64,000 bases of DNA from an uncultured Chitinophaga sp. (GCA_964545895.1 CAZJHS010000003.1:4421-68420); one strand, 5' to 3'. Positions 3,549 through 18,296 are shown, numbered from the stretch's first letter. Notes: generated by a model from the sequence alone, not told the origin. A program made the numbers and translations.

Positions 3549-5561
3549 ATGAATAAACATACAGTAACACTAGGTGTTTTAACATTAGTTACTTCATTAA
3601 CGTTTGCCCAAAAGCCGGGAGTAAAAGCAAAGCCGGGCACCGCTAAGCCCGTTGCTGCATCAACCCAAAATACCAACCCTATGGTATTTACCTATGGTAA
3701 CGATACCGTGTACAAAGCCGAGTTTGAGCGCTTGTTAACTAAAAACAGGAACCAAAAAGAAACGCCAACCGAAGCTAGTGTACGTGAGTATTTAGAGTTA
3801 TACGAAAACTTTAAAATGAAAGTAAGCGAAGCAAAGCTTATGCAGCTTGATACGTTTACTTCGTTTAAAACAGAACTTGCCGGATACCGCAAACAATTAG
3901 CAAACCCTTATTTGACCGATAAAAAAGCTACCGAAGGCTTAGTTAAAGAAGCATACCAACACATGCTTACCGAAATTAATGCTAGCCATATTTTAATTAA
4001 CTGCAATGCAAATGCTCGTCCGGCTGATACTTTAGCTGCTTACAACAAAGCATTAGAGTTGCGCAAGCGTTACATAAAAGGCGAAAGTTTTGATTCGTTA
4101 GCTGCTAAAAACTCTGATGATCCATCGGCTATTAGCAACTACGGAAACTTAGGTTGGTTTGCTGCTTTTGATATGATTTATCCATTTGAAAAAATGGCTT
4201 ACAACACACCAAAAGGTCAAGTATCAATGCCGTTTAGAACCCAGTATGGATACCACATTTTAAAAGTAAACAATACGCGTGCAGCACGTGGCGAGGTAAA
4301 AGTACAACACATTATGCGCAGCACTGGTGCAAGTGCAAGTGCCGAAACAGTAGCCGAGCAACGTTTGGTTATTGATAGCGTGTACAACTTAGCGCAAAAT
4401 AAGCTTATTCAGTTTGATGATTTAGTGGCGCAATACAGCCAAGACGAAGGCAGCAAACCTAACAAGGGTATGATGAACTGGTTTTCGAGCGGAAGCCGTT
4501 TTCCAGAGGAGTTTAAAGAAGCTGCATTCGCATTAAAAGAGAAAGGTGACGTTTCTAAAATTTTTACTACTCAATATGGATTTCATATTATTAAGTTAAT
4601 TGATATGCGCCCAGTTGGCTCACTTAAAGAAGTTGAAGAAACTTTAAAAACAAAAGTATCTCGCGATTCGCGTGCTGAAAGTAGCCGTGCTAGCGTGGTA
4701 CAACGTATTAAAAAAGAAAACAACTTTAAAGAGCAAAAAGTAAACGTAACAGCCTTTGCAAATGCATGCGATAGCAGCATGTTTATGGACGGTTACACCG
4801 TTGATGCACAAAAATTTGGTAAACGTACTTTGTTTAGCATTGGCAATAAAACTTACACCGATTTAGATGTAGCAAATTACATTGCCGAAACCCACGATAC
4901 ATACGAGCCAGGCCAATCAGTGTTTATGTTGGTTAATGGGGTGTACAACAGATTTGTGGATGAAAAAGCGTTAGCATACGAAGAGGCCCAATTGGAAACC
5001 AAATACGAAGATTTCCGCAACCTAATGCAAGAGTATCATGATGGTATTTTATTGTTTGATTTAACCGATAAAAAAGTTTGGAATAAAGCAGTAATTGATA
5101 CCGTTGGTTTAGAGAAATTTCATGAAGCCAACAAAACTAAATACATGTGGAAAGACCGCGTAAAAGTTTTAACCTTTAACTGCCTTGATTTAAAAACCAA
5201 AACAGCTGCAATGAAAATGGCTGCTGCTGGCAAATCGGTTGAAGAAATAAAAGCAAAATTGGCTAAAAAAATTACGGGTGCAGTAGTTGTAACCGAGCAA
5301 AAAGCTGAGCGTGGCGAAAACCCATCAACCGATAAACTTTACGATAAAAAAGGAGTGATTGATATACCTAACGAGAACAACCAATTTAAGTTTTACTTTG
5401 TGGTAGGTATAGTTGGCCCCGAGCCTAAAACTTTAAAAGAAGCCAAAGGATTAGCTACCAGCGATTACCAAAACTACTTAGAAAAAGAGTGGATTAAAGA
5501 ATTGCGTGCTAAATACCCAGTTACTGTAAACGAAGAGGTTGTAAAAACCTTATTTAAATAA
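3549..5561 (+). CDS. Periplasmic PpiC-type peptidyl-prolyl isomerase (PpiD/SurA-like)
   Basis: 670 aa with a signal peptide. It has two parvulin signatures (ASHILI...YGYHILKV and YGFHIIKLID). Confidence 0.85.
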   Translation: MNKHTVTLGVLTLVTSLTFAQKPGVKAKPGTAKPVAASTQNTNPMVFTYGNDTVYKAEFERLLTKNRNQKETPTEASVREYLELYENFKMKVSEAKLMQLDTFTSFKTELAGYRKQLANPYLTDKKATEGLVKEAYQHMLTEINASHILINCNANARPADTLAAYNKALELRKRYIKGESFDSLAAKNSDDPSAISNYGNLGWFAAFDMIYPFEKMAYNTPKGQVSMPFRTQYGYHILKVNNTRAARGEVKVQHIMRSTGASASAETVAEQRLVIDSVYNLAQNKLIQFDDLVAQYSQDEGSKPNKGMMNWFSSGSRFPEEFKEAAFALKEKGDVSKIFTTQYGFHIIKLIDMRPVGSLKEVEETLKTKVSRDSRAESSRASVVQRIKKENNFKEQKVNVTAFANACDSSMFMDGYTVDAQKFGKRTLFSIGNKTYTDLDVANYIAETHDTYEPGQSVFMLVNGVYNRFVDEKALAYEEAQLETKYEDFRNLMQEYHDGILLFDLTDKKVWNKAVIDTVGLEKFHEANKTKYMWKDRVKVLTFNCLDLKTKTAAMKMAAAGKSVEEIKAKLAKKITGAVVVTEQKAERGENPSTDKLYDKKGVIDIPNENNQFKFYFVVGIVGPEPKTLKEAKGLATSDYQNYLEKEWIKELRAKYPVTVNEEVVKTLFK

Positions 5562-7542: not shown

Positions 7543-8907
7543 ATGAAACAGTTTTTAGCACTTGTTGTAGTAGGCTTAGTAATGTGCTTAGGCACAAATA
7601 CCATGGCACAAGGTCAATTAATTGATGAAATTGCCGCTGTAGTTGGCGAAAACATCATTATGCAATCTGAAATTGAAGTGGAGTTTTTTCAGCTTCAGAA
7701 AGAAATTGGCCAATTAAACGATAGTGCCAAATGCGCTATACTTCGCCAAAAAATTGTAGAACGTATGATGCTTACCCAAGCACAATGGGATAGTTTACCA
7801 CAAAACGATGAGCGGGTAGATATGGAATTGGAAAAGCGTGTAAAATACTTTGCATCGCAGTTTCAGGGTGGCGAAAAGGAAATGGAAAAATACTACGGTA
7901 AAACCGTAGCCGAGATAAAAGCCAGCAACCGAGATAAAATTAAACAAAGCTTATTGGTGCAAGAAATGCAAGGCAAAATTTTACGTGAGGTAAAAGTATC
8001 GCCAACTGATATCAAGAAATTTTACAACGAATTAGATAAGCTTGATAGCCTGCCATACTACAGTGCCGAAGTAGAGTTGGCACAACTTGTAATGACTCCT
8101 AAAGTAAGCAAAGAGGCTAAGCAAATTGCGCTCGAAAAAATTACAGAATTACGTGCACGTATTATGCGTGGCGATAATTTTGGTACCCTTGCTCTTATTT
8201 ACAGCGATGATAAAGGTTCGGCCCAAAACCGCGGTGAGCTTGGTTTTTTTGGTCGTGGTGATATGGTACCCGAGTTTGAAGCAGCCGCTTTTAAGTTAAG
8301 ACCTGATAGCATTTCAAAAATTATTGAAACCAAATATGGCTACCATATTTTGCAGTTAATTGATCGTAAAGGCGAGAACATTAACATCCGCCATATATTA
8401 ATTAAACCACAAATTTTCCGCACGGATATTGCCCGTACCAAAGAGATTATGGACAGTGTACTTTGGTTAGTAAAAATAGACTCGTTAACATTTGAGCAAG
8501 CTGCACAAAAGTTTAGCGATGATGAAAACACCAAAGCAAACGGTGGCTTTATTACTGATGGAAATATTGGATCAACCAAAATACCATTGGACGAATTGCC
8601 TAAAGATATTTATTACACCATTGAAAAATTAGAGCCAGGCCAAACCACCGAGCCTGATTTAATGACCTTGCCTACACCCGATAAACAACAAGCTTGGCGC
8701 GTATTTTACTTAAAATCGCAAAGTGCACCACACCGTGCAAACATGCGCGATGATTATCAAAAATTACAAGCACTAACCTTACAACGTAAGCAAATGTTAG
8801 CCATGCAAAACTGGATTGCCAAACACAAGGATTTATACTTTATACAAATTAGTGATACCTACAAAAACTGCAACAATATTCAAGAGTTTTTAAAGAAAAG
8901 TAACTAA
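7543..8907 (+). CDS. SurA-like peptidyl-prolyl isomerase/chaperone
   Basis: 454 aa with a signal peptide. It has a SurA-N-like region and two parvulin domains (KYGYHILQLID, then IRHILIKP...). Confidence 0.85.
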   Translation: MKQFLALVVVGLVMCLGTNTMAQGQLIDEIAAVVGENIIMQSEIEVEFFQLQKEIGQLNDSAKCAILRQKIVERMMLTQAQWDSLPQNDERVDMELEKRVKYFASQFQGGEKEMEKYYGKTVAEIKASNRDKIKQSLLVQEMQGKILREVKVSPTDIKKFYNELDKLDSLPYYSAEVELAQLVMTPKVSKEAKQIALEKITELRARIMRGDNFGTLALIYSDDKGSAQNRGELGFFGRGDMVPEFEAAAFKLRPDSISKIIETKYGYHILQLIDRKGENINIRHILIKPQIFRTDIARTKEIMDSVLWLVKIDSLTFEQAAQKFSDDENTKANGGFITDGNIGSTKIPLDELPKDIYYTIEKLEPGQTTEPDLMTLPTPDKQQAWRVFYLKSQSAPHRANMRDDYQKLQALTLQRKQMLAMQNWIAKHKDLYFIQISDTYKNCNNIQEFLKKSN

Positions 8908-8913
8908 GCCCAC

Positions 8914-9882
8914 ATGAGCATAACTTATACTAATGATGTAGAAGCAGCAAATGCTTTACATAGCAAATACAAAGAACTTAAGGCAGAAATTGGTAAAGTA
9001 ATTATTGGACAGCACGAAGTAGTTGATGCTGTTTTAATGTCGATTTTTGCTAACGGACATACCTTATTAGTAGGTGTACCTGGCTTGGCTAAAACCTTGT
9101 TGGTACGCACCATTGCCGAGGTACTTGATTTAAACTTTAGCCGCATACAGTTTACACCAGATTTAATGCCGAGTGATATTACTGGTAGCGAAATTTTAAA
9201 CGATAAACGCGAGTTTAGTTTTGTACGCGGACCCTTATTTGCCAATATTGTATTGGCCGATGAGATTAATCGTACACCACCTAAAACACAAGCAGCTTTG
9301 CTCGAGGCCATGCAAGAACGTAACGTTACCGTAAATGGTAAACTGCATAAATTAGAGCAACCATTTTTTGTATTGGCTACACAAAACCCAATTGAGCAAG
9401 AAGGTACCTATCCGTTGCCAGAGGCGCAGCTCGATCGTTTTATGTTTAATGTAATACTTGGTTACCCTACTTTAGAAGAGGAATTACAAGTAATAAAAAA
9501 CACTACTGGAAATAGCACCGCACAGCTTAATAAAATTTTACATGCACAAGATATTTTAGCATTTCAACAATTGGTGCGTAAAGTACCAGTAGCCGATAAT
9601 GTGTTAGAGTATGCAGTAAAATTAGTTGCAAAAACACGCCCAAACACTACCCTAGCAACAGCTAAAGTAAACGAGTACATTAGTTTTGGTGCAGGCCCAC
9701 GTGCTGGGCAGTTTTTAGTTATGGGAGCCAAATGCCATGCCTTAATAAATGGCAAATACAGCCCCGATATAGACGATGTAAAAGCTGTAGCTTACGATGT
9801 ATTGCGCCACCGTGTAGTAAAAAACTACAAGGCCGAGGCCGAAGGCATAAGCATTGAACAAATTATTGATGGCTTGATGTAA
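8914..9882 (+). CDS. MoxR-family AAA+ ATPase
   Basis: 322 aa. It has Walker A GVPGLAKT, Walker B VLADEINR and the typical FFVLATQNPIEQEGTYPLPEAQLDRF. Confidence 0.9.
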   Translation: MSITYTNDVEAANALHSKYKELKAEIGKVIIGQHEVVDAVLMSIFANGHTLLVGVPGLAKTLLVRTIAEVLDLNFSRIQFTPDLMPSDITGSEILNDKREFSFVRGPLFANIVLADEINRTPPKTQAALLEAMQERNVTVNGKLHKLEQPFFVLATQNPIEQEGTYPLPEAQLDRFMFNVILGYPTLEEELQVIKNTTGNSTAQLNKILHAQDILAFQQLVRKVPVADNVLEYAVKLVAKTRPNTTLATAKVNEYISFGAGPRAGQFLVMGAKCHALINGKYSPDIDDVKAVAYDVLRHRVVKNYKAEAEGISIEQIIDGLM

Positions 9883-9891
9883 TAACAGCAC

Positions 9892-10494
9892 ATGAACAGA
9901 ACTTGGGCTATACTGTTATCAACTGTTTTTCATCCGGTATTTATTAACCTACTTAGTTTTATTTTAGTAATAGAACTTACCCCTTATTTACAAGCAGGAT
10001 TTACCCCAGAAGCCAAATGGTTTTATGTGCTGTATGTATTTATTACCACAGGCATGATTCCGTTATTTGTAGTAGTGTTGCGCAAAGCACTAGGGTTTAG
10101 TAAAAGCATTATGCTTGATCATGCCGATGACAGACACATACCTTACATTACAACTGCCATAGCCTATTTAATGGGCTACTACTTTTTTATTAAGCTAGGA
10201 GCGCCACATATTTTACAAGGCTACATGTTGGCCAGTGCCTGTATCATGGTATCTATACTTATTATTAATTTTTATACCAAAATTAGCGCACATGCTACCT
10301 CGCTTGGTGCACTGGTAGGCTTACTTATGGCATTAAGTTCGTATGCTTTGGTTGATGTACGCATTTACCTGGTAGTAACCTTAATTTTAACTGGCCTAAC
10401 CTGCGTAGCTCGCTTGGCATTGCAAGCACACACCCACCAACAAATATACTGGGGTGCTTTTATTGGGTTTATGATGATGTGGTTGGTGATGTGA
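9892..10494 (+). CDS. Polytopic membrane protein (possibly PAP2-like)
   Basis: 200 aa with about 6 TM helices. SAHAT...ARLALQAHTH weakly resembles PAP2 motifs. Its last 21 codons are duplicated at 13181-13247. Confidence 0.6.
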   Translation: MNRTWAILLSTVFHPVFINLLSFILVIELTPYLQAGFTPEAKWFYVLYVFITTGMIPLFVVVLRKALGFSKSIMLDHADDRHIPYITTAIAYLMGYYFFIKLGAPHILQGYMLASACIMVSILIINFYTKISAHATSLGALVGLLMALSSYALVDVRIYLVVTLILTGLTCVARLALQAHTHQQIYWGAFIGFMMMWLVM

Positions 10495-10498
10495 TTTT
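10432..10498. repeat. Direct repeat DR1a (67 bp; 3' end of the membrane-protein gene)
   Basis: acccaccaacaaatatactggggtgcttttattgggtttatgatgatgtggttggtgatgtgatttt matches 13181-13247 at 66 of 67 positions. Confidence 0.95.
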
Positions 10499-10841
10499 AT
10501 ATTGCGAACAAACTAATAGCCAATCCCAACATTTTTATTCTGCTTTCATCATCACATTTTTCTAGTGAAATGATAAAATCGCTCCAGGTAGAAATGGTGT
10601 AATTAAAAGTTATACCACCACCCGCAAGATCCATAACCAACTGTTTATCGCAGTCTAATACATCACAAATTTCAACAAACTGTTGAAGCGGAACAACCTT
10701 TAATTGCCCATTTTCTAATTTAGAATACACGCTGCGCGTAATACCACATTTGTGCGCCACATACTCTTGTTTAAGGGCTTTGCGTTGCCTAATTAATTTA
10801 AGCAGCAAACAAATATTGTTATAGTAGGCTTGTTTGTTCAT
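10497..10841 (-). CDS. XRE-family helix-turn-helix transcriptional regulator
   Basis: It has the HTH_3 pattern LIRQRKALKQEYVAHKCGITRSVYSKLENGQ. I prefer the ATG at 10841 to the TTG at 10862 given in the ORF track. Confidence 0.8.
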   Translation of the reverse strand: MNKQAYYNNICLLLKLIRQRKALKQEYVAHKCGITRSVYSKLENGQLKVVPLQQFVEICDVLDCDKQLVMDLAGGGITFNYTISTWSDFIISLEKCDDESRIKMLGLAISLFAI

Positions 10842-10875
10842 GGAGTATAATAGGTTAAACAAGTTTAATAAAAAT

Positions 10876-10890
10876 GTGCATCACATGCAC
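10876..10890. promoter_or_regulatory. Perfect 6-3-6 palindrome (candidate XRE operator) in the divergent promoter region
   Basis: gtgcat-cac-atgcac lies immediately upstream of the XRE gene. A palindromic gtgcac follows at 10905-10910. Confidence 0.35.
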
Positions 10891-11040
10891 CATATGTTCA
10901 TATTGTGCACGCGATTTTACTTCAAGTAATGCCAAACCAATAATAGTTTTGAGTTGAGTTTACAAAGTGTTACTGCAGAGCATTATTGAAACTTACGGAT
11001 AGCCGAAAACGGATTAGAGTAGGCAATAAATAAATTTAAT

Positions 11041-11448
11041 ATGAAAAAAGTAATTTCATTGTTATTAACAATCATGTCAGGAGTAATGTATGGTTATGGA
11101 CAAACAACATATGTTGTTGAAAACGGAGTAACATACACAAGGATTTTCACAATTCAAGAGTACCAGTCATTAGGGTTAATGGTTGAAGGAGAAGAAGTGG
11201 CTGAAGCTGCAAGAAAGAAGAAATCAGGAACAATTTTGTGGTGTAAAAAAGGTTATGGGTGCTGTTTGTCATCAAGAATTGAAATAGATGGAAATGGTGG
11301 AATTACCGCTATGACTGTTGTTGCCCAAGTTGATGATGAAGGGAATGCGGTACAAGAAACAAGTGGAATCTTTGCTTATTATAATTCAGAATTAGATGAA
11401 GTTATTTATCGTGTTACATCAACACCACCAGCTGTAATCGCAAATTAG
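11041..11448 (+). CDS. Small secreted protein with a WCKKGYGCC cysteine motif
   Basis: 135 aa with a signal-like N-terminus (MKKVISLLLTIMSGVMYGYGQ). An acidic EGEEVAEAA stretch is followed by RKKKSGTILWCKKGYGCC. I recognise no family. Confidence 0.6.
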   Translation: MKKVISLLLTIMSGVMYGYGQTTYVVENGVTYTRIFTIQEYQSLGLMVEGEEVAEAARKKKSGTILWCKKGYGCCLSSRIEIDGNGGITAMTVVAQVDDEGNAVQETSGIFAYYNSELDEVIYRVTSTPPAVIAN

Positions 11449-11458
11449 TATTTAAATA

Positions 11459-11489
11459 ATGCCAACAATTAAATTGTTGGCATTTTATT
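11459..11489 (+). terminator. Hairpin terminator/attenuator between the small gene and the 557-aa gene
   Basis: Stem gccaacaat / attgttggc followed by attttatt, 11 nt after the stop at 11448. Confidence 0.55.
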
Positions 11490-11502
11490 CTTATTTTTAT
11501 TT

Positions 11503-13176
11503 ATGAAACGACTATTATTTTTATTGATTTGCTTTAATCAGTTTAATGTAAACGCTCAGTTTACTGAAAAATTTTATCATTTGGATACTTATGCTGCTGA
11601 AGCAAGTTTTGATTCATTGATACGAAATGAAATTCAAACTCATGATAGCTTGTCAGAGAGCTACTATCTCATAACCTATCCCATATTGGCTGGTGCTACT
11701 AGTTGGGTTCCTCAATTTATCAGGATATTTAATAAAATAAAAAACACAAATAATGATATTGTTATACTCTACTATCTAAATGGGGGATTACGAGAGAAAG
11801 ATATTCCTTTATTTATGAAGGAAAAATTGAAAATGACAGATGCAGACATGAAAAAAGTGAAAACTATTTTTAATGATGAACTTTATACAACCATAAGTAA
11901 TGGGAGAAACTTGGTTAGGCTGCAATATTATTTTAGAAGAAAATTATACTATGATGAGGCGGGAAAATGGCATGATGTTGCAGCAACAAATTTGCCAGAA
12001 GAGAAAATAACTATTAAACAAATAAATAAAATTCAATTAAAAGAAATTGACTCATTGCTCCTATTTGAAAGAGACCAAATTTTTCCTTTTAAAGAAGATA
12101 AATTACTTATTTTAAGTGATGCAAAAAATGAAATCCTAGAACTTGATGTTAATTCAGGAGAAGTAAAACCATTTATCTCAATAAATAAGGTATTTAACGC
12201 TACTGATATATATTGTAAGTATTTTGCGAATGGAGACACCTTAGCTTGTAACTATGCAAAAAAATTGGAACACAAAGTTACTTCAATTGGTAGGCAAACA
12301 TTAAAAATTGATGGAGTTAAAAAAGTGGATGATTTTCTATATCTGTCAGGGGGAATTGAAGCATTTGTTCAAGACAAAAAAGATTATACATTTAAAAATG
12401 AAGAGGGAGAAAAAGTTACTATTGAAGCGAGTGAACCTTCTACATCCTATTTTGGCTTAATATTTAAATACAACTTAATTACTAAGCAATGTGAAATATT
12501 TAGGTTAGAGGAGTTGCCCGAAACTCGGAAAGATTTTCCATTCATTTATCCAGATTGTGGACTTTTTATGAAACAAGATACCATTGTTGCTGGCGTGAAT
12601 ACATGGCATAAAAAAGGTTTAAACACATTTAATTTAATTAATCTAATACCCAAAGATGGCAGCTATAAACCAGCTAATAAATTGGCACCATTAGAGATAA
12701 AATCACCACTATTGGCAGATAATTACAACAAAAGTTTTTTTTATACATTTAATGAACAGCAATACTTTTCCATCAACTTTAGTAAACACATTTACTTAGT
12801 TGGCAGAGAAAAACCACAATCTAGTTTATATGGTAATGGCAGCTCCCCATACAGTATCGAAAAAGTTCCTGACTTTGTGGAGGACACTTCTTCATCACTA
12901 TTGGTAAACTTTTCTATACACGACATGAAGCCAATTTTTAATAACAGGTACTTACTAACTTATTGTGATTTTAAAGGGCAACCTATTTTCGAATTAAAAA
13001 ATCGGATGTTAAAAACCGTTGACATAATAGATGCAAAAAGTATTAAAGGGCTTGAGCGCTATTATTCAAACAACTATAGAATTGATTTACTAATTGATAA
13101 CGATAAGATATATTATAAGAGTATTGATAATGGTGAAATGTTTCTAAATGTATTTTCTATCCTACCAGTCAACTGA
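11503..13176 (+). CDS. Secreted hypothetical protein (N-terminal thioredoxin-like segment without CxxC, then a beta-rich region)
   Basis: 557 aa with a signal peptide (NQFNVNAQ). The segment YYLITYPILAGATSWVPQFIRIFNKIKNTNNDIVILYY resembles the CxxC segment of the 5723-7366 product. It looks AT-rich. Confidence 0.7.
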   Translation: MKRLLFLLICFNQFNVNAQFTEKFYHLDTYAAEASFDSLIRNEIQTHDSLSESYYLITYPILAGATSWVPQFIRIFNKIKNTNNDIVILYYLNGGLREKDIPLFMKEKLKMTDADMKKVKTIFNDELYTTISNGRNLVRLQYYFRRKLYYDEAGKWHDVAATNLPEEKITIKQINKIQLKEIDSLLLFERDQIFPFKEDKLLILSDAKNEILELDVNSGEVKPFISINKVFNATDIYCKYFANGDTLACNYAKKLEHKVTSIGRQTLKIDGVKKVDDFLYLSGGIEAFVQDKKDYTFKNEEGEKVTIEASEPSTSYFGLIFKYNLITKQCEIFRLEELPETRKDFPFIYPDCGLFMKQDTIVAGVNTWHKKGLNTFNLINLIPKDGSYKPANKLAPLEIKSPLLADNYNKSFFYTFNEQQYFSINFSKHIYLVGREKPQSSLYGNGSSPYSIEKVPDFVEDTSSSLLVNFSIHDMKPIFNNRYLLTYCDFKGQPIFELKNRMLKTVDIIDAKSIKGLERYYSNNYRIDLLIDNDKIYYKSIDNGEMFLNVFSILPVN

Positions 13177-13180
13177 TATT

Positions 13181-13247
13181 ACCCACCAACAAATATACTG
13201 GGGTACTTTTATTGGGTTTATGATGATGTGGTTGGTGATGTGATTTT
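13181..13247. repeat. Direct repeat DR1b (67 bp)
   Basis: Second copy of the 3' end of the membrane-protein gene. The single mismatch (10456 g vs 13205 a) would change Ala to Thr. Confidence 0.95.
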
Positions 13248-13377
13248 GTTTATTGGTTAAGCCATACTAATGACTTAAAAAAATCATAATTTACATTGTG
13301 CACATCCATGCGTAATTAAGATTAAAAAACAATAATTAAATTTGAGTTAAGCCATTGGCCAAGCTAAAATTTATACT

Positions 13378-16300
13378 ATGAACCTAAGAGCCCTAATTAC
13401 TTTACTTCTATTACTACCATTAGGTGTTTGTGCGCAGCAATTTACTGATGCAACAGTTATTGGGGGATTAGGTGGCCAAGGCGTAAACAATATTTATCAT
13501 GATAATATTGGAAACAAATATGTGTTGCTTTTCTCAGACAAGCCAATTACAATTGATAGCTCGGGAACCCCGATTACTATAACTAGTAATTCAAGAGAGT
13601 ATGCGCTCATAAAGTATTCTAATAAAAATAAGTATTTACACCACATAAGTATTAAACGAGTTTGGCCAAATAGTAGTTTTGTTGTTTCATTTACCTCCCA
13701 AAACGACCTTCTGCTTTCTTGCTCTTTTAATCATCGTGATACCATAGAACTTTATCATTCCAACAGATTATTATATAAACAGTTAATTATCAGAAATGGA
13801 ACTCCACCTTTAGCTCGTAACATTGCAGTTTTCATTACTAAAATTAGCTCAAGTGGGCAGTTCTTATGGACCTCGTTCATCAATAAATTAAACGCCAATT
13901 ACACTCAACAAGGTGCAATTGAAGTTGGCGTTTATTGCCACTCCGATACTGCTATTTATGTTAGTTTTAGTAGTGACCAATTAACAAATAGCATTGATAC
14001 TATTTTAGTAACTAATAACACAAATCAATCCGATACTATTTTTTCCAATAAGGTATCAATCATTGTTAAACTTAATCAACAAGGCAAGTTACTTACCTAT
14101 ATCGAACCGCTTAAATCTTTAAAACATTTTCAACAAGATTCAGCACTTATAAGAACATTTAAAATAGCTAAAATTAATAACAATATTTACTTCGTATTAA
14201 ATGCAACAATTACAACTCCAGATAGTATTGTTGGATTAAGTCAAACCACACCAATTGATACCGGCACTGTTTATTTACTTTTTAAAATGAACCTTACAGA
14301 TAGCATAGTTTGGGCAAAAGAAATAGTAGTAAATCATACCGGACCACAAGTACAATATCCAATTATTGACTTGAGTTCTGATACGGTGAATAATCATTTA
14401 CTTTTAGCTATTGATTTTGACCCGTATCGCAACGAAATGAAATTGTTTAGTTCCAACGCAAGCTTCGGAACTTATTTGAGCAAAATTGATGAACAAGGGA
14501 ATCCGGTTTGGAGCGAATTTCTGAACAACATTAGATACCCTACCTACAAAAAAAACTATACTAATAAACAATCCGTTCTAATTGGAGAAACGGTCTATCC
14601 AAATGGATATTTTCAGCATTATTTACCATACAACCAACTTGGCATTCGAACAACTTTTATTGCTTTTCAAGATAGCATGAACAGGTTTTTTAATGCACAA
14701 AGCATTCACGCTAATCAAGTAACCTTCAGCAGCACCTTATCAATATCAGGCATATCTATTAGTCCAAATGGTAAAGTAGCAGTTGGTGGTTCATTTTTGG
14801 ACAGCATCTCATTACCCTGTAGAACTATCCAAGCCACACTTGATTACAGCGACTACGGACAAAAACTATCTGATGGCTTTTTATTAGAATACAGCCCAAT
14901 ATTGGCAATTGATACTGCTGTTTGTAAAAGAATGATATCGCCTAGCGGTAAATACACTTGGGATAGTACTGCCTATTATTTTGATACCATACCTAATAAA
15001 TTGGGCTGCGATAGTACCCTATTGTTTTATGTGAAGGTAATGCAAGATAAAGTTTCAATTGACACTACTGTTAAAGTAAGCATGCAATCGCCAAGTGGTA
15101 AATATATTTGGGATAGCACCGCAACCTATACCGATACCCTGACTAATACTTTTGGATGTGATAGTATACTTACTTTTAATGTAAAGGTGTTACAAAACAG
15201 CACTTTTATTGACACTTCGGTTTGTTTGTTTTTTAAACTTAGCACAAGTTTAAAAGCATTTTACCAAACAGGTAATTTTATTGATACCCTAACCAACCGC
15301 TTGGGGGGCGATAGTATTGTTTACATTAAACTTACCATACTTAAAAGTACTGCAATTATTGATACCTCGTTTTGCAATAAAATACTAAGCCCTAGTGGTA
15401 AGTTTTGGTTAAACAATACAGGCGCGTATACCGATACATTAATGAACAAGCATAATTGTGATAGTATAATCGCCATTAGGTTTACACGCTTACCCATGAT
15501 GGATACAATTCGGCTATCTGCATGTAAACCATTAGGCAGCCCTAGTGGTAAGTTTGTTATGAATGAAACCCGTTGGTATACCGATACATTAGTGAGTAGT
15601 AAAGGTTGCGACAGCATACTACAAATTGACTATACGCAAATACGTATTACCGATACCATTGTTTTAGCCAATTGTAATGCGGCTTTAAGTCCAAGCAATA
15701 AATTTGTAATGCAACAAAGCGGCTGGTATACCGATACCCTTATAACCACCAATGGTTGCGATAGTATAATACGTATAAATTTTACGCTTTTAAAATCAGC
15801 TAGTAGTATTGTGCTGGTTGCTTGCGATAGCCTTATATCGCCTAGTGGTAAATTAGTTTTTAATGCACCTGGAGTTTATACCGATACAATAACAAATGCT
15901 GCAGGTTGTGATAGTATTATTACCATTAATTTAACTTTTTCTAATTCGCAAATAAGCGTTTCAAAATCAAATGATATTAGTTGCGAAAACCAAAGCGCTG
16001 TATTAACCGCATCGGGTGGTAGTGTTTATGTTTGGCAACCATCAACAGGGTTATCAAACACGCAAATTAGCAATCCCATTGCTAACCCCCACCAAACTAC
16101 TCAATACACAGTAATTGCTACTGATGCCTACGGTTGTAAACTTTCAGATACGATATCGGTTTATGTAAATATATTAGATAGTGTTAACAATATACCAAAT
16201 GTAATTACACCAAATAATGACGGATTAAACGACTGCATTTCGGCAGAAAATATCGCTCAATTTAACACTTGCTCATTTGTTATTTTATCGCGCTGGGGTA

Positions 16301-16458: not shown

Positions 16459-16518
16459 CTAGTTTAATTTTGCCTATCATTATTTAATATTATAAACCCA
16501 AACTCATAACACCTTTTA

Positions 16519-16778: not shown

Positions 16779-18296
16779 ATGAAAAAAAATTGGCTATTAC
16801 TAGTAATTATATTCTTTACCCAATTGTTAAAGGCGCAAAATACACAGTTGTTTCACAATAGGGATAGTACTAGCAGCAGAGTTATACTTTTATCTACTGG
16901 CTCTGATAATAGTTCACTATATAGTTTAAGTTGGCACTTACCAATTGATTCGATTCAGGATAATAATCGATTTTATTATAAGATAAAAAAAATTGACACA
17001 TCGGGAAATTTATTAGCGGCAAACGAAATTTATAAGAATGGAAAATTAAACGCCAGTTATCAACCAAGTACACCAAATCAAACTGACTTTGTTATTGTTG
17101 AAAACAGTGACACCTCAGAAAACTCTGTATACTACATAAACTATATTAAAAGTAATTTAAAAGTTGATAGTTTTATTTTACCGTTAATTGGTAAAACCCC
17201 ATATCTGTTTACCTATTGCAAACACAATGATAAGCTAATCATCATTTCATCAGACAGTAGAACTCTTGGAAACAAGGCATACGTAACCATTGCAGATACA
17301 CTTGGTAATGAAATTAAAACACAAAGATTCCTTTACGAATACTTTTATAATCAAACCAACCAAATAAGCATTACTCCGCTATGCTTGATTAGCGATGGAA
17401 ATGGAGGATTTATATCTGGTGGATGGTATGATACAGCTTCACAAGAAACCAAAATAAACTTGTTTAGAATTGATAGTTTGGGAAATAAAACTTGGGAGTA
17501 TAAAGAAACACGGATTGGAGGTTCTTTTATAAAAGGCATGCAGCTATTGCCTGATAAAACCATTTTAGCTTATGGAGCTTATGGAGATTTAATGTACTTG
17601 GCCAAGTTTAGTCAACAAGGTCAATTACTTAACGAAAATTTTTATTATCCAGGTGGTTTTATCGATCGTACAAGTGGCCGTTGCAATATTATTAATGTTA
17701 AAATAATTGATGGATATATATATGCCGTTGGTGGATCGCACAATATGTTTAAAGCACTTAATACATACACCGATTTGGGTACGCTTTTAAAAACAGACTT
17801 AGATGGTAAACCCATTTGGGCCAAGCAATTTGGCAATTATTATGGTTACAATATTCTAGATCAAATTTACCAAACATCAAATAGCCGATTGTTGTTGGCA
17901 GGGCTTGGTGTTGACAGCACACAAATGCCTTTACATGGAGTAAGCTGGTATGTAAGTACTGATACTGCTGCTAACGAAAACCTGCCTTGGTGCCAATTAG
18001 TAAATGTTGAGCGGTATTATCCATTTACGGGTATTAACGAGGTAAGTAGTTTGGGTTCAATGATACAAGTATATCCAAACCCAACAAATGGTGAGTTAAC
18101 CATTAAAAATCCCTTACAACTAGCTATTAACCAAATTCAATTTTATGACGGAAATGGTACACTTTGCCACACCCAATTATTTGATGAGCCAAACGCCCAG
18201 TTTAATATTGATGTTACTTATTTAAAACAAGGATTGTATTACTTAAAAATAAACACACCTAAGGGTGTTATAGTAAAAAAAATTGTAAAAGATTAA
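16779..18296 (+). CDS. T9SS type A sorting domain-containing secreted protein
   Basis: 505 aa with a signal peptide. The CTD is IQVYPNPTNGELTIKN...GLYYLKINTPKGVIVKKIVKD. Confidence 0.85.
   Translation: MKKNWLLLVIIFFTQLLKAQNTQLFHNRDSTSSRVILLSTGSDNSSLYSLSWHLPIDSIQDNNRFYYKIKKIDTSGNLLAANEIYKNGKLNASYQPSTPNQTDFVIVENSDTSENSVYYINYIKSNLKVDSFILPLIGKTPYLFTYCKHNDKLIIISSDSRTLGNKAYVTIADTLGNEIKTQRFLYEYFYNQTNQISITPLCLISDGNGGFISGGWYDTASQETKINLFRIDSLGNKTWEYKETRIGGSFIKGMQLLPDKTILAYGAYGDLMYLAKFSQQGQLLNENFYYPGGFIDRTSGRCNIINVKIIDGYIYAVGGSHNMFKALNTYTDLGTLLKTDLDGKPIWAKQFGNYYGYNILDQIYQTSNSRLLLAGLGVDSTQMPLHGVSWYVSTDTAANENLPWCQLVNVERYYPFTGINEVSSLGSMIQVYPNPTNGELTIKNPLQLAINQIQFYDGNGTLCHTQLFDEPNAQFNIDVTYLKQGLYYLKINTPKGVIVKKIVKD

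Follow-up and report, generated by a model that had tools for sequence, protein, structure and literature searches.

An exported protein pair with an intervening hairpin on a repeat-bounded mini-cassette of an uncultured Chitinophaga sp.

The question raised by this locus is whether three neighbouring genes with no recognised family form a unit of their own and, if so, of which kind. The genes lie within a window of 64,000 nt (GCA_964545895.1, CAZJHS010000003.1:4421-68420), that is, the whole stretch of DNA that was analysed, and a first-pass annotation had described them as a self-contained, apparently mobile cassette made up of a repressor-like regulator, a small secreted protein and a large secreted one.

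The repeat-bounded insert and its regulatory region

The three genes are enclosed between two direct repeats on the plus strand, an att-like left boundary (DR1, 10432-10498) and a right copy (DR2, 13181-13247), which share 66 of their 67 nt. DR1 covers the final 63 nt of a gene coding for a 200-aa PAP2-like membrane protein (9892-10494, plus strand; weak PAP2 match), up to and including its stop codon, plus 4 nt, and DR2, which begins 4 nt past the stop codon of the large gene, is a non-coding copy of that same 3' end; the 39-nt core of the repeat occurs only twice in the window, with 0 copies expected. The insert between them is 2,682 bp long and its coding sequences abut both repeats, the stop codon of the regulator gene spanning the junction with DR1. 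Its G+C content (0.27-0.35) is lower than that of the upstream flank (0.385-0.40). In a related metagenome-assembled genome (L015), the syntenic SurA-MoxR-PAP2-like site is found without the cassette, the PAP2-like proteins being 70% identical, and direct repeats of a gene's 3' end together with such an uninterrupted site in a relative are the signature of an integrative element. All seven same-species contigs carry the cassette and no empty site was found in the same species; one of them (L006) harbors a second cassette in tandem and, after the next gene, a third copy of the repeat of 113 nt. Neither a recombinase within 10499-13180 nor an integrase among the 10 mid-size ORFs of the window in which Pfam domains were sought was detected. 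Because of the direct repeats, the lower G+C content, the empty syntenic site and the unrelated contexts in which its genes occur elsewhere, the block looks mobile, as had been proposed. It is not an integron gene cassette, since the repeats are near-identical 3' ends of a host gene rather than attC sites (the only inverted match inside the repeat is the 7-nt CACCAAC/GTTGGTG) and no integrase was found among those ORFs.

The leftmost gene (10497-10841, minus strand, ATG at 10841) codes for the repressor-like protein already recognized by the first-pass annotation, a 114-aa XRE/Cro-C1-type helix-turn-helix regulator. The ORF reaches back to a TTG at 10862 (10497-10862), and the 114-aa start is the one chosen by gene callers on same-species contigs, at the ATG equivalent to position 10841. 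The protein belongs to the HTH_3 family (PF01381; residues 21-72, 37.8 bits against a gathering cut-off of 23, E 1.9e-9) and also matches HTH_31 and HTH_26, while its HipB-like, control-protein and phage-repressor-like matches are confined to the HTH region. The perfect palindrome reported in the divergent intergenic region is indeed present, though short: GTGCAT-CAC-ATGCAC (10876-10890; 15 nt, 6-nt arms, 3-nt spacer), located 35-49 nt upstream of the regulator ATG. With at most one mismatch it has two matches in the window versus 0.2 expected by chance, a modest enrichment, and it was not seen in the other lineages; it may be regarded as a candidate operator. A candidate promoter of the small gene is TAGTTTTG (10944-10951, plus strand), 97 nt upstream of the small-gene ATG, which matches the -7 box TAnnTTTG of Bacteroidota, a consensus that derives from Bacteroides sigma-A promoters. 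In the 5' UTR of the same gene a DUF805b-like RNA motif (RF02914; 10993-11025, plus strand) scores 22.6 bits, below the gathering threshold of 35.6, with two non-canonical stem pairs, and is not assigned to that family; in a distant locus (L023) the small gene is likewise preceded by this motif, with a score of 30.9 bits.

The conserved pair and the hairpin between its genes

The small gene (11041-11448, plus strand) encodes the 135-aa protein with an N-terminal signal peptide (ending YGYGQ, followed by TT) that had been annotated, and contains EGEEVAEAARKKKSGTILWCKKGYGCC, identical to the segment quoted at that time. The comparison of the window with its relative L012 (pN 0.081, pS 0.675) argues for a real coding gene under purifying selection, and homologs form a conserved family of about 10 clusters at 90% identity. 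Their alignment reveals an invariant Cys68/Cys75 loop (C-x6-C, with Gly73) preceded by a basic patch, both kept across the family, and conserved hairpins at the two ends of the protein (N-terminal YVVENGxTYTR and C-terminal FAYYNSExxxIIYR), whereas the stretch just before the C-x6-C loop is the most variable part. The predicted model, of moderate confidence (AF2 pLDDT 69, 9-sequence alignment), is a beta-rich domain for which no structural match was found.

The large gene (11503-13176, plus strand) codes, as claimed, for a secreted protein of 557 aa, with a signal peptide ending NAQ, followed by F. The predicted structure, also of moderate confidence (AF2 pLDDT 71, pTM 0.62, 9-sequence alignment), comprises an N-terminal alpha/beta domain (about residues 54-143) and a C-terminal beta-propeller (about residues 169-555) with a conserved helical insert carrying the pair Cys238/Cys249. 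The family is rare (53 representatives among 1.84 billion) and very divergent (about 50 clusters at 50% identity); K155 and R264 are invariant across it and a few other residues are nearly so. The structural matches of the model are generic 6-bladed propellers and TolB, with target-normalised TM-scores of at most 0.52, query TM-scores of 0.2-0.35 and about 10% identity for the propellers.

The N-terminal domain deserves a separate comment, as it had been credited with a thioredoxin-like signature. Sequence searches lend no support to this idea and any such homology is undetectable: in a profile scan of 35 N-terminal domains (E <= 10) no family matched more than two members, and no thioredoxin-type profile, nor Redoxin, AhpC-TSA or NHL, figures among the 25 commonest of the 27 families matched; no PDB sequence match was found, and hhalign gives a probability of 0.5% against E. 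coli TrxA. The domain has AGATSW in the place of CxxC, as well as no conserved cis-Pro. The elements of the model (strands 54-60, 85-91, 119-123, 139-143 and 148-150; helices 69-79, 98-107 and 125-131) follow the order beta-alpha-beta-alpha-beta-alpha-beta-beta, compatible with the thioredoxin topology as far as order, and not sheet arrangement, is concerned. Membership in the thioredoxin-like superfamily thus has no support from profile matches. The architecture that the annotation had in mind is that of NHLRC2-type proteins, in which an alpha/beta domain with the same element order precedes a 6-bladed propeller; these differ from the window protein, which lacks CxxC and has neither thioredoxin-like nor NHL profiles among the commonest families matched, and NHLRC2 is not among its top 50 fold matches.

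No Pfam family was matched at E <= 1 by the small or the large protein, and neither had a match in NCBIfam or PADLOC, a significant PDB sequence match, or relatives in phage genomes, plasmids or IMG/VR contigs; against PHROGs the small protein has one marginal match (E 0.027) and the large one none. The PADLOC matches concern only generic HTH models in the regulator, and no known anti-phage defence system is recognised in the two proteins. As far as can be judged from these sequence and structure searches, neither protein fits any described family or system, and the statement that the unit has no recognised family is borne out, no well-characterised family having emerged from either type of search.

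The survey of the genomic neighbourhood of the homologs revealed that a small-family gene lies directly upstream of the large one, on the same strand, in 10 of the 13 lineages with usable context (the window, L012, L004, L001, L002, L014, L020, L022, L023 and L026). The pair is kept down to about 20% identity of the large protein, it sits in unrelated genomic contexts in the other lineages, and from lineage to lineage the two genes diverge in step, as in co-inheritance. In two further lineages (L003 and L028), and probably in a third (L027), the large gene stands without a recognisable small gene, and therefore the large protein can persist alone. The regulator is not part of this conservation: adjacent HTH proteins share only 19-24% identity between lineages and are not fixed in place or orientation; in one lineage a two-component system stands there, and several lineages lack an adjacent regulator. 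Hence, conservation extends over the small gene, the hairpin and the large gene, and not over the trio; the idea of a self-contained three-gene unit stands for the former and fails for the regulator. The co-occurrence in the same order in 10 of the 13 lineages supports a functional link between the small and large genes. The operon was shown only in uncultured Bacteroidota.

In both families the signal peptides end in AQ, GQ or SQ and are of the Sec/signal-peptidase-I type, with Gln at +1, and both a lipobox and a T9SS C-terminal domain are absent from the small as well as the large protein. On these grounds the two proteins are expected to work in the periplasm or the cell envelope, and the conserved Cys pairs C68/C75 and C238/C249 fit an oxidising compartment. 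The signal-peptidase-I site of the large protein (AQ/F), with no conserved Cys at +1, rules it out as a lipoprotein.

The two genes are separated by a hairpin (11458-11484, plus strand), a perfect 12-bp stem with a 3-nt loop, A+T-rich and with four G-C pairs, which is followed by TTTTATTCTTATTTTT; the T-rich tract ends 18 nt before the large-gene ATG. The hairpin previously placed at 11459-11489 is thus confirmed. The 60 nt from 11446 to 11505 fold at -14.4 kcal/mol (z -3.7 versus dinucleotide shuffles), and the 54-nt intergenic region at -14.2 kcal/mol (z -5.9), none of 200 mononucleotide shuffles being equally stable. A strong intergenic stem-loop is present in all ten lineages with the pair (z from -2.9 to -7.0); the stems are unrelated in sequence between lineages and a T run usually follows. 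A stable stem-loop and then a U tract, in sense orientation and 3' of a gene, is the structure of an intrinsic terminator, and from the last 150 nt of the small gene to the large-gene ATG no TAnnTTTG box was found in the window, only 18 nt lying between the hairpin and that ATG. The hairpin is probably a leaky terminator, or attenuator, giving a much higher expression of the small gene than of the large one; a promoter within the end of the small gene is possible.

Proposed roles of the pair

Our best guess, which we hold only tentatively, is that the locus encodes a pair of envelope proteins, that a leaky terminator fixes the ratio between them, and that a non-autonomous integrative cassette carries their genes. 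According to this model, the large gene would be reached by read-through only, and the small beta protein with its disulfide loop would greatly outnumber the large one. The latter, with its TolB-like layout, might be a binding, handling or anchoring partner of the small protein rather than a modification enzyme of the cytoplasmic style. The XRE protein would repress the divergent promoters via the GTGCAT-N3-ATGCAC palindrome, making the expression of the module conditional, and the cassette would owe its place to site-specific integration at the 3' end of the membrane-protein gene, with a recombinase acting in trans or since lost, much as in a CIME (see below). A more far-reaching version, which we consider improbable, is that the small gene, hairpin and large gene represent an undescribed two-protein envelope system spreading as stacking, promoter-containing mini-cassettes with a recombinase in trans; in it, the small protein might be (this is one possibility) an effector or signal that is exported, and the propeller protein a receptor or handler dedicated to it, and the cassettes would form a tandem array at the 3' end of the membrane-protein gene, in which copies of the host-gene end would replace attC.

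An alternative is a module for antagonism between bacteria. The small protein might be an exported toxin, or bacteriocin-like protein, leaving the cell for instance in outer-membrane vesicles, and the large one a periplasmic immunity or receptor-decoy protein. Periplasmic immunity proteins suit envelope-targeting toxins, and the location expected for the large protein fits; so do the accessory, lower-G+C nature of the cargo, its position on a mobile cassette in a strain-variable region and its control by a local transcription factor, and the large genes that stand without a small one (L003, L028) resemble orphan immunity genes. However, a conserved terminator that lowers the expression of immunity relative to toxin runs counter to the needs of a toxin/immunity pair, in which the immunity protein is usually the smaller of the two, and neither a secretion signal beyond Sec, nor a T9SS C-terminal domain, nor a toxin domain was detected. 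We therefore regard this explanation as unlikely.

It is also doubtful that the large protein is a periplasmic enzyme, resembling the lactonases or sugar dehydrogenases with a 6-bladed propeller, with the small protein as its accessory subunit, substrate carrier or inhibitor. PQQ-dependent sugar dehydrogenases, paraoxonase and Drp35 lactonase are among its top Foldseek matches, but the low identity and TM-scores given above make these matches generic for the fold. Similarly, the invariant K155 and R264, with the few near-invariant residues, are what an active or binding site would leave, and yet no catalytic, metal-binding or cofactor-binding motif was recognised in the large protein and no enzyme family in 47 members. 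The small partner in excess would, moreover, be an unusual stoichiometry for an enzyme subunit.

The precursor-plus-processing module that had been suggested fares worse. It would require the small protein to be a bacteriocin- or RiPP-like precursor that the propeller protein cleaves, cyclises or matures in some other way in the periplasm, releasing an active Cys-loop peptide. Lantibiotic, microcin and lasso-peptide loci do classically place a leaky terminator between a small structural gene and a larger partner, this layout is conserved across the pair loci, and the family retains the basic patch and C-x6-C loop after a variable stretch. However, the small protein bears a Sec signal peptide in place of a leader peptide, both of its ends are conserved, and a single beta domain is predicted from its terminal hairpins, so that a leader-plus-core organisation does not apply; each locus has a single small gene, the pair loci were found to contain no C39 peptidase, ABC exporter, radical-SAM or other gene for maturation, and the large protein lacks a recognisable catalytic motif or enzyme family. 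A RiPP-type precursor is thus very unlikely.

Many XRE-controlled cargos of small mobile elements act in phage exclusion or defence, and a module blocking phage adsorption or DNA entry at the envelope would match the mobile cassette, the accessory and patchy distribution and a regulator resembling phage repressors and control proteins, but given the PADLOC, PHROGs and phage-genome results and the fact that nothing in either sequence suggests phage components, we judge it the least probable of all.

Should the two proteins indeed work together as an envelope system, as in the model that we favor, two new protein families would be defined, with a simple, testable design in which a small disulfide-loop protein is abundant and the gene of its propeller partner lies behind a leaky terminator. 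Conserved hypothetical gene pairs number in the thousands, and the novelty here lies in the fact that no described family or system fits; a new mechanism is not implied. The carrier, a 2.7-kb insert with no integrase, is perhaps as interesting as its cargo. With the second cassette and third repeat copy of at least one strain, it hints at a small-cassette accretion site in Bacteroidota, and such a site would escape current island and integron finders.

Comparison with known systems

The layout of the large protein recalls TolB, which is also periplasmic, has an N-terminal alpha/beta domain followed by a 6-bladed propeller and binds a small envelope protein, Pal. TolB chains align to the model over about 410-425 columns, with TM-scores of 0.21-0.31 and an rmsd of about 18 A. 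However, there is no sequence relationship, and no Pfam family was matched by the large protein; the small protein, unlike Pal, is neither a lipoprotein nor an OmpA-like peptidoglycan binder, and the module is an accessory cassette whose neighbours are the XRE and small genes and not tolQRA or pal. With only the two-domain layout in common, the protein is not placed in the TolB family.

A second parallel, drawn by the first-pass annotation from the EVAEAA sequence, concerns the small NVEALA proteins of Bacteroides (PF14055), whose genes, according to database annotation, adjoin those of 6-bladed propeller lipoproteins of the BF3164/DUF5128 type. In both cases a small gene of Bacteroidota lies beside a propeller gene of unknown function, and the structure 4raa (BF0058) is among the better matches of the large protein (target TM 0.51, rmsd 7.2 A); no paper on the NVEALA/propeller-lipoprotein association was found in the literature. 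The analogy in sequence does not hold, because EGEEVAEAA belongs to the least conserved part of the small protein, being replaced in homologs by SYTDADASA, IGESTGSSA and others, and in the absence of a Pfam match the NVEALA family is rejected. In contrast with the Bacteroides propeller lipoproteins, the large protein has the AQ/F site, an extra N-terminal alpha/beta domain and no lipobox; no family of the BF3164/DUF5128 type was recognised in it or in 47 members, and the general fold is what they share.

The lantibiotic, microcin and lasso-peptide operons resemble the locus in gene order, with a small gene, a stem-loop with a T tract and a larger gene reached by read-through. They differ from it in that both products of the window module are predicted to be Sec-exported, that the small one is a predicted folded domain of about 110 aa instead of a leader plus core, and that maturation enzyme families, peptidase and exporter are missing.

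As for the carrier, the closest concept is that of the cis-mobilizable element (CIME), as defined in PMC5704250. The window insert is far smaller than the described CIMEs, with three genes in 2.7 kb and coding sequence that runs up to both repeats, its target is a membrane-protein gene of an uncultured member of the Bacteroidota, and neither a cognate integrase nor an excision product was seen. Like a CIME, it has attL/attR-like repeats that rebuild the 3' end of the target gene and carries no integrase or transfer genes of its own, and the tandem second cassette and third repeat copy of the same-species contig resemble the tandem accretion of such elements.

A conserved gene pair and its variable regulator

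The ORF listing and a direct reading of positions 10200-13500 confirmed the anatomy of the cassette outlined in the first-pass annotation. A minus-strand ORF (10497..10862) encodes an XRE/Cro-C1 HTH protein (HTH_3, E 1.9e-9), whose start in same-species contigs was placed by the gene callers at the ATG corresponding to 10841, for a length of 114 aa. A divergent spacer of 199 nt (10842-11040), embedding the palindrome GTGCAT-CAC-ATGCAC (10876-10890) and a TAGTTTTG box (10944-10951) that fits the Bacteroidota -7 promoter consensus TAnnTTTG, separates it from a 135-aa ORF (11041..11448) coding for a protein with a signal peptide and the EGEEVAEAARKKKSGTILWCKKGYGCC stretch already quoted in that annotation. 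A hairpin with a perfect 12-bp stem and a 3-nt loop (11458-11484), then a T-rich tract, come after this small gene, and the large ORF (557 aa, 11503..13176; signal peptide ending NAQ, followed by F) starts 18 nt past the hairpin.

The large protein has 8 relatives in a word-indexed search of 5.8 billion proteins and 53 in a profile search covering 1.84 billion cluster representatives, the full-length members spanning about 515-600 aa; the small family comprises about 10 clusters, and scans of GTDB genomes with two distant subfamily alignments returned nothing. The gene directly before the large one, in the same orientation, encodes a small-family homolog in 10 of the 13 lineages with usable context, that is, in the window, L012, L004, L001, L002, L014 and L020 (HMM E <= 1e-39) and in the more distant L022 (9e-23), L023 (7e-14) and L026 (1e-4). 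The large gene stands alone in L003 (885-1121; protein 70% identical to that of the window) and L028 (1877-1988), and probably in L027. Purifying selection acts on the small gene (pN 0.081, pS 0.675, window versus L012; the L001 rows of this comparison were set aside because their start coordinate was off by one base), and the divergence of the two genes tracks each other between lineages. The pair is a genuine operon, conserved and confined to Bacteroidota, whose two products are exported, and it fits no described family. In L012 (418-430; also in L013), a lineage 77% identical, the small gene reads ATG AAA AAA TAG, with a stop at codon 4 and the remainder intact in another frame, and protein P0010 of a sister contig is intact; this stop may be either a sequencing/assembly error in the A run or a recently disrupted (or phase-variable) start.

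The idea that the three genes constitute a conserved unit did not survive the comparison of loci. The HTH_3 genes adjacent to the pair in L001 and L004 are 19-24% identical to that of the window and differ in position and orientation, a HisKA_3/GerE two-component pair occupies the regulator's place in L002, and in the other loci a regulator alongside is absent. Since conservation does not extend to the regulator, the unit that is conserved is the pair and not the trio.

Further features were observed around the pair in these relatives. L001 harbors two adjacent modules, with an HTH gene between them and a common 226-nt upstream region (5293-5518 and 8688-8913; 89% identical) that includes promoter, 5' UTR and first codons. 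The modules also have in common a 174-nt downstream segment (7675-7848 and 10802-10975), with which a 131-aa secreted Cys protein begins; after the first module this protein is cut short. A small-plus-propeller pair of another kind makes up the second module: its small ORF measures about 200 aa from the module-1-type start codon (called as 239 aa; 254 aa from an upstream TTG), and its 415-aa large protein has a faint Sortilin-Vps10 match and a T9SS tail. Three tandem 42-nt repeats (8010-8135), each embedding the palindrome TATGCAAAAATTTGCATA, lie between module 1 and the minus-strand HTH gene (8185-8583), about 50 nt past the 3' end of the latter, and look like candidate binding sites, e.g., for a regulator. 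The L002 pair is bracketed by a 28-nt direct repeat (5184-5211 and 7721-7748; 26/28 identical) with a TGGTTA/TAACCA palindrome inside; it may represent an att-like duplication, or simply a pair of terminators that resemble each other. In L004, an interspersed family of 84-90-nt repeats (22-105, 1313-1396, 4673-4762 and 8140-8229; core ...GCTGCAAAACGTTA...) separates gene blocks, the HTH-small-large block among them, and points to a REP/MITE-like element or to additional cassette junctions.

Insertion site and strain variation

The three genes are bounded by 67-nt direct repeats (10432-10498 and 13181-13247; 66/67 identical), which share a 39-nt core with just two copies in the window, none being expected by chance. 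The left repeat is the true 3' end of a gene (9892..10494) for a 200-aa PAP2-like membrane protein (weak PAP2 match), and the right one is non-coding. The insert is extremely compact: on reading the sequence, the XRE stop codon spans the junction with the left repeat, and the large-gene stop falls 4 nt short of the right one. Its G+C content is 0.27-0.35, against 0.385-0.40 upstream. The cassette occupies the same site in all seven same-species metagenomic contigs (activated-sludge and JGI samples among them). A related MAG, with a PAP2-like protein 70% identical, exhibits the same SurA-MoxR-PAP2-like synteny with a different gene directly after: the site is empty in this related species.

In the same-species contig L006, the 3' end of the PAP2-like gene occurs a third time, as a 113-nt copy (13427-13542) just after a 1026-aa CHU_C/T9SS gene, and therefore two cassettes are stacked there behind one gene end; this copy is absent from the window (16459-16480) and from a further same-species contig, L007 (13419-13440). 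The tandem repeat-bounded cassettes of L006 consist of the XRE-small-large block and then the CHU_C gene, and a TTAATTTT microhomology is common to the third-copy junction and the gene. Downstream of the CHU_C gene, a 505-aa Por_Secre_tail gene (window 16779-18296) is also present in L006 and absent from L007 (13419-13480), and the whole region downstream of the PAP2-like gene varies between strains. No recombinase was found within the insert or among the ten mid-size window ORFs tested. The pattern matches a putative site-specific integration at a gene 3' end, with tandem accretion and a recombinase that may have been lost or act in trans; such a pattern is known in the literature as a CIME, or cis-mobilizable element (PMC5704250). 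A phage or plasmid origin is not supported, because searches for relatives of the large protein in plasmids and phages (tblastn) and in IMG/VR (pattern scan) returned none. In this genome, the operon and a local XRE regulator are carried by a small insert that is bounded by direct repeats, has no recombinase and lies in a region that is strain-variable.

The sequence ATTGTGCAC, located beside the palindrome upstream of the small gene (10902-10910), recurs outside the cassette (13295-13303), upstream of the CHU_C gene; as a sign of XRE control over this neighbor it was rejected, its two matches being no more than chance would give (mean 1.5).

The two proteins

The large protein matches nothing in Pfam, NCBIfam, PADLOC or PHROGs; when 47 members of its family were scanned with Pfam, two chance single-member matches were all that came up, and a PDB sequence profile search with its alignment gave nothing significant. 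Across the family the signal peptides terminate in AQ, GQ or SQ, a pattern typical of Bacteroidota signal-peptidase-I sites (Gln at +1); no member has a conserved lipobox, and neither Por_Secre_tail nor CHU_C was reported among their matches. An AF2 model built from 9 sequences (pLDDT 71, pTM 0.62) places an alpha/beta domain at the N-terminus (about 54-143), ahead of a beta-propeller (about 169-555) with a conserved Cys238/Cys249 pair on a helical insert. K155 and R264 are the only family-wide invariant residues, Y142, D206, G219 and A252 being nearly so. Foldseek against the PDB retrieved generic 6-bladed propellers only (PQQ sugar dehydrogenases, paraoxonase, Drp35, BtuG2 and BF0058/4raa), at about 10% identity and target TM <= 0.52; the two-domain layout is common to the model and to the periplasmic TolB, but the superposition is poor.

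The specific analogies drawn in the first-pass annotation did not hold. The thioredoxin-like N-terminal domain is a possibility on the model, where the element order beta-alpha-beta-alpha-beta-alpha-beta-beta is compatible with that fold, without sequence backing: the 25 commonest of the 27 families from a Pfam scan of 35 N-terminal domains included no thioredoxin type and each matched two members at most, a PDB profile search with the domain alignment gave nothing significant, and hhalign against E. coli TrxA returned a probability of 0.5%. As for the suggested resemblance of the small protein to the NVEALA family, on which we found nothing relevant in the literature, the acidic EVAEAA stretch behind this suggestion is the region of the small protein that is least conserved. 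The small protein has no match in Pfam, NCBIfam or PADLOC, a single marginal one in PHROGs (E 0.027), nothing significant in a PDB profile search with its alignment, and no Foldseek match for its model (best E-values 1.4 and 0.55, PDB and BFVD). The AF2 model (pLDDT 69) is a beta-rich domain formed by conserved hairpins, N-terminal YVVENGxTYTR and C-terminal FAYYNSExxxIIYR; its centre, of lower confidence, embeds a patch that is usually basic and an invariant C-x6-C loop (CKKGYGCC, CRLGKGGC, CDNSEGNC and others) with a conserved Gly, and one subfamily has a second Cys pair.

Expression of the pair and possible roles

All ten small-to-large intergenic regions (46-146 nt) contain a strong stem-loop, usually followed by a T run, and the stem sequences are unrelated between lineages. 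Each region folds far more stably than its shuffled versions (z between -2.9 and -7.0), with no more than 2 of 200 shuffles as good, and this in one case only. The retention of structure without sequence conservation is the strongest single indication that the hairpin is functional. No TAnnTTTG box occurs in the window from the last 150 nt of the small gene to the large-gene ATG, and therefore read-through of a leaky terminator is the simplest route to expression of the large gene; the small protein would then be much more abundant than the large one. Upstream, a DUF805b-like RNA motif (RF02914: GAUAGCCGAAAA...AGAGUAGGC) lies 15-50 nt before start codons: it scores below threshold before the small gene in the window (10993-11025; 22.6 bits) and in the distant L023 (2639-2673; 30.9 bits), whereas in L002 (sites 8663-8697 and 8990-9024), ahead of a small gene that is unrelated, it reaches 36.6 bits and exceeds the gathering score. 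No Rfam family matches the 64-kb window at gathering threshold, and we found nothing relevant on DUF805b in the literature.

The conservation and the architecture of the pair are demonstrated; the roles of its products are proposals. The one we tentatively prefer, at somewhat less than even confidence, is an envelope pair in which the propeller protein would bind, anchor or handle the much more abundant small disulfide-loop protein, the leaky terminator fixing their ratio and the neighboring transcription factor gating expression. A toxin with its immunity protein would suit an accessory module in a mobile setting and the occurrence of orphan large genes in L003 and L028, but the terminator would under-express the immunity protein; we consider this unlikely, and the literature yielded nothing relevant on propeller immunity proteins. 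That the pair represents an enzyme with a subunit or inhibitor seems to us similarly improbable. Additional small-gene paralogs near the large gene were looked for in L026, L002, L001 and L022 and none was found, so that a multi-precursor locus was discarded; processing of the small protein as a periplasmic precursor is quite unlikely, given its Sec signal peptide and globular pattern of conservation, and given that each locus has one small gene and lacks maturation or export genes. Phage exclusion at the envelope level appears very unlikely.

Conserved hypothetical gene pairs are common; the mini-cassettes stacked at a membrane-protein gene's 3' end make this one somewhat more interesting. 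Each family or system considered failed at least one defining test, so that the module is unassignable to a known kind and, in the narrow sense of lying outside any known kind considered, is new.
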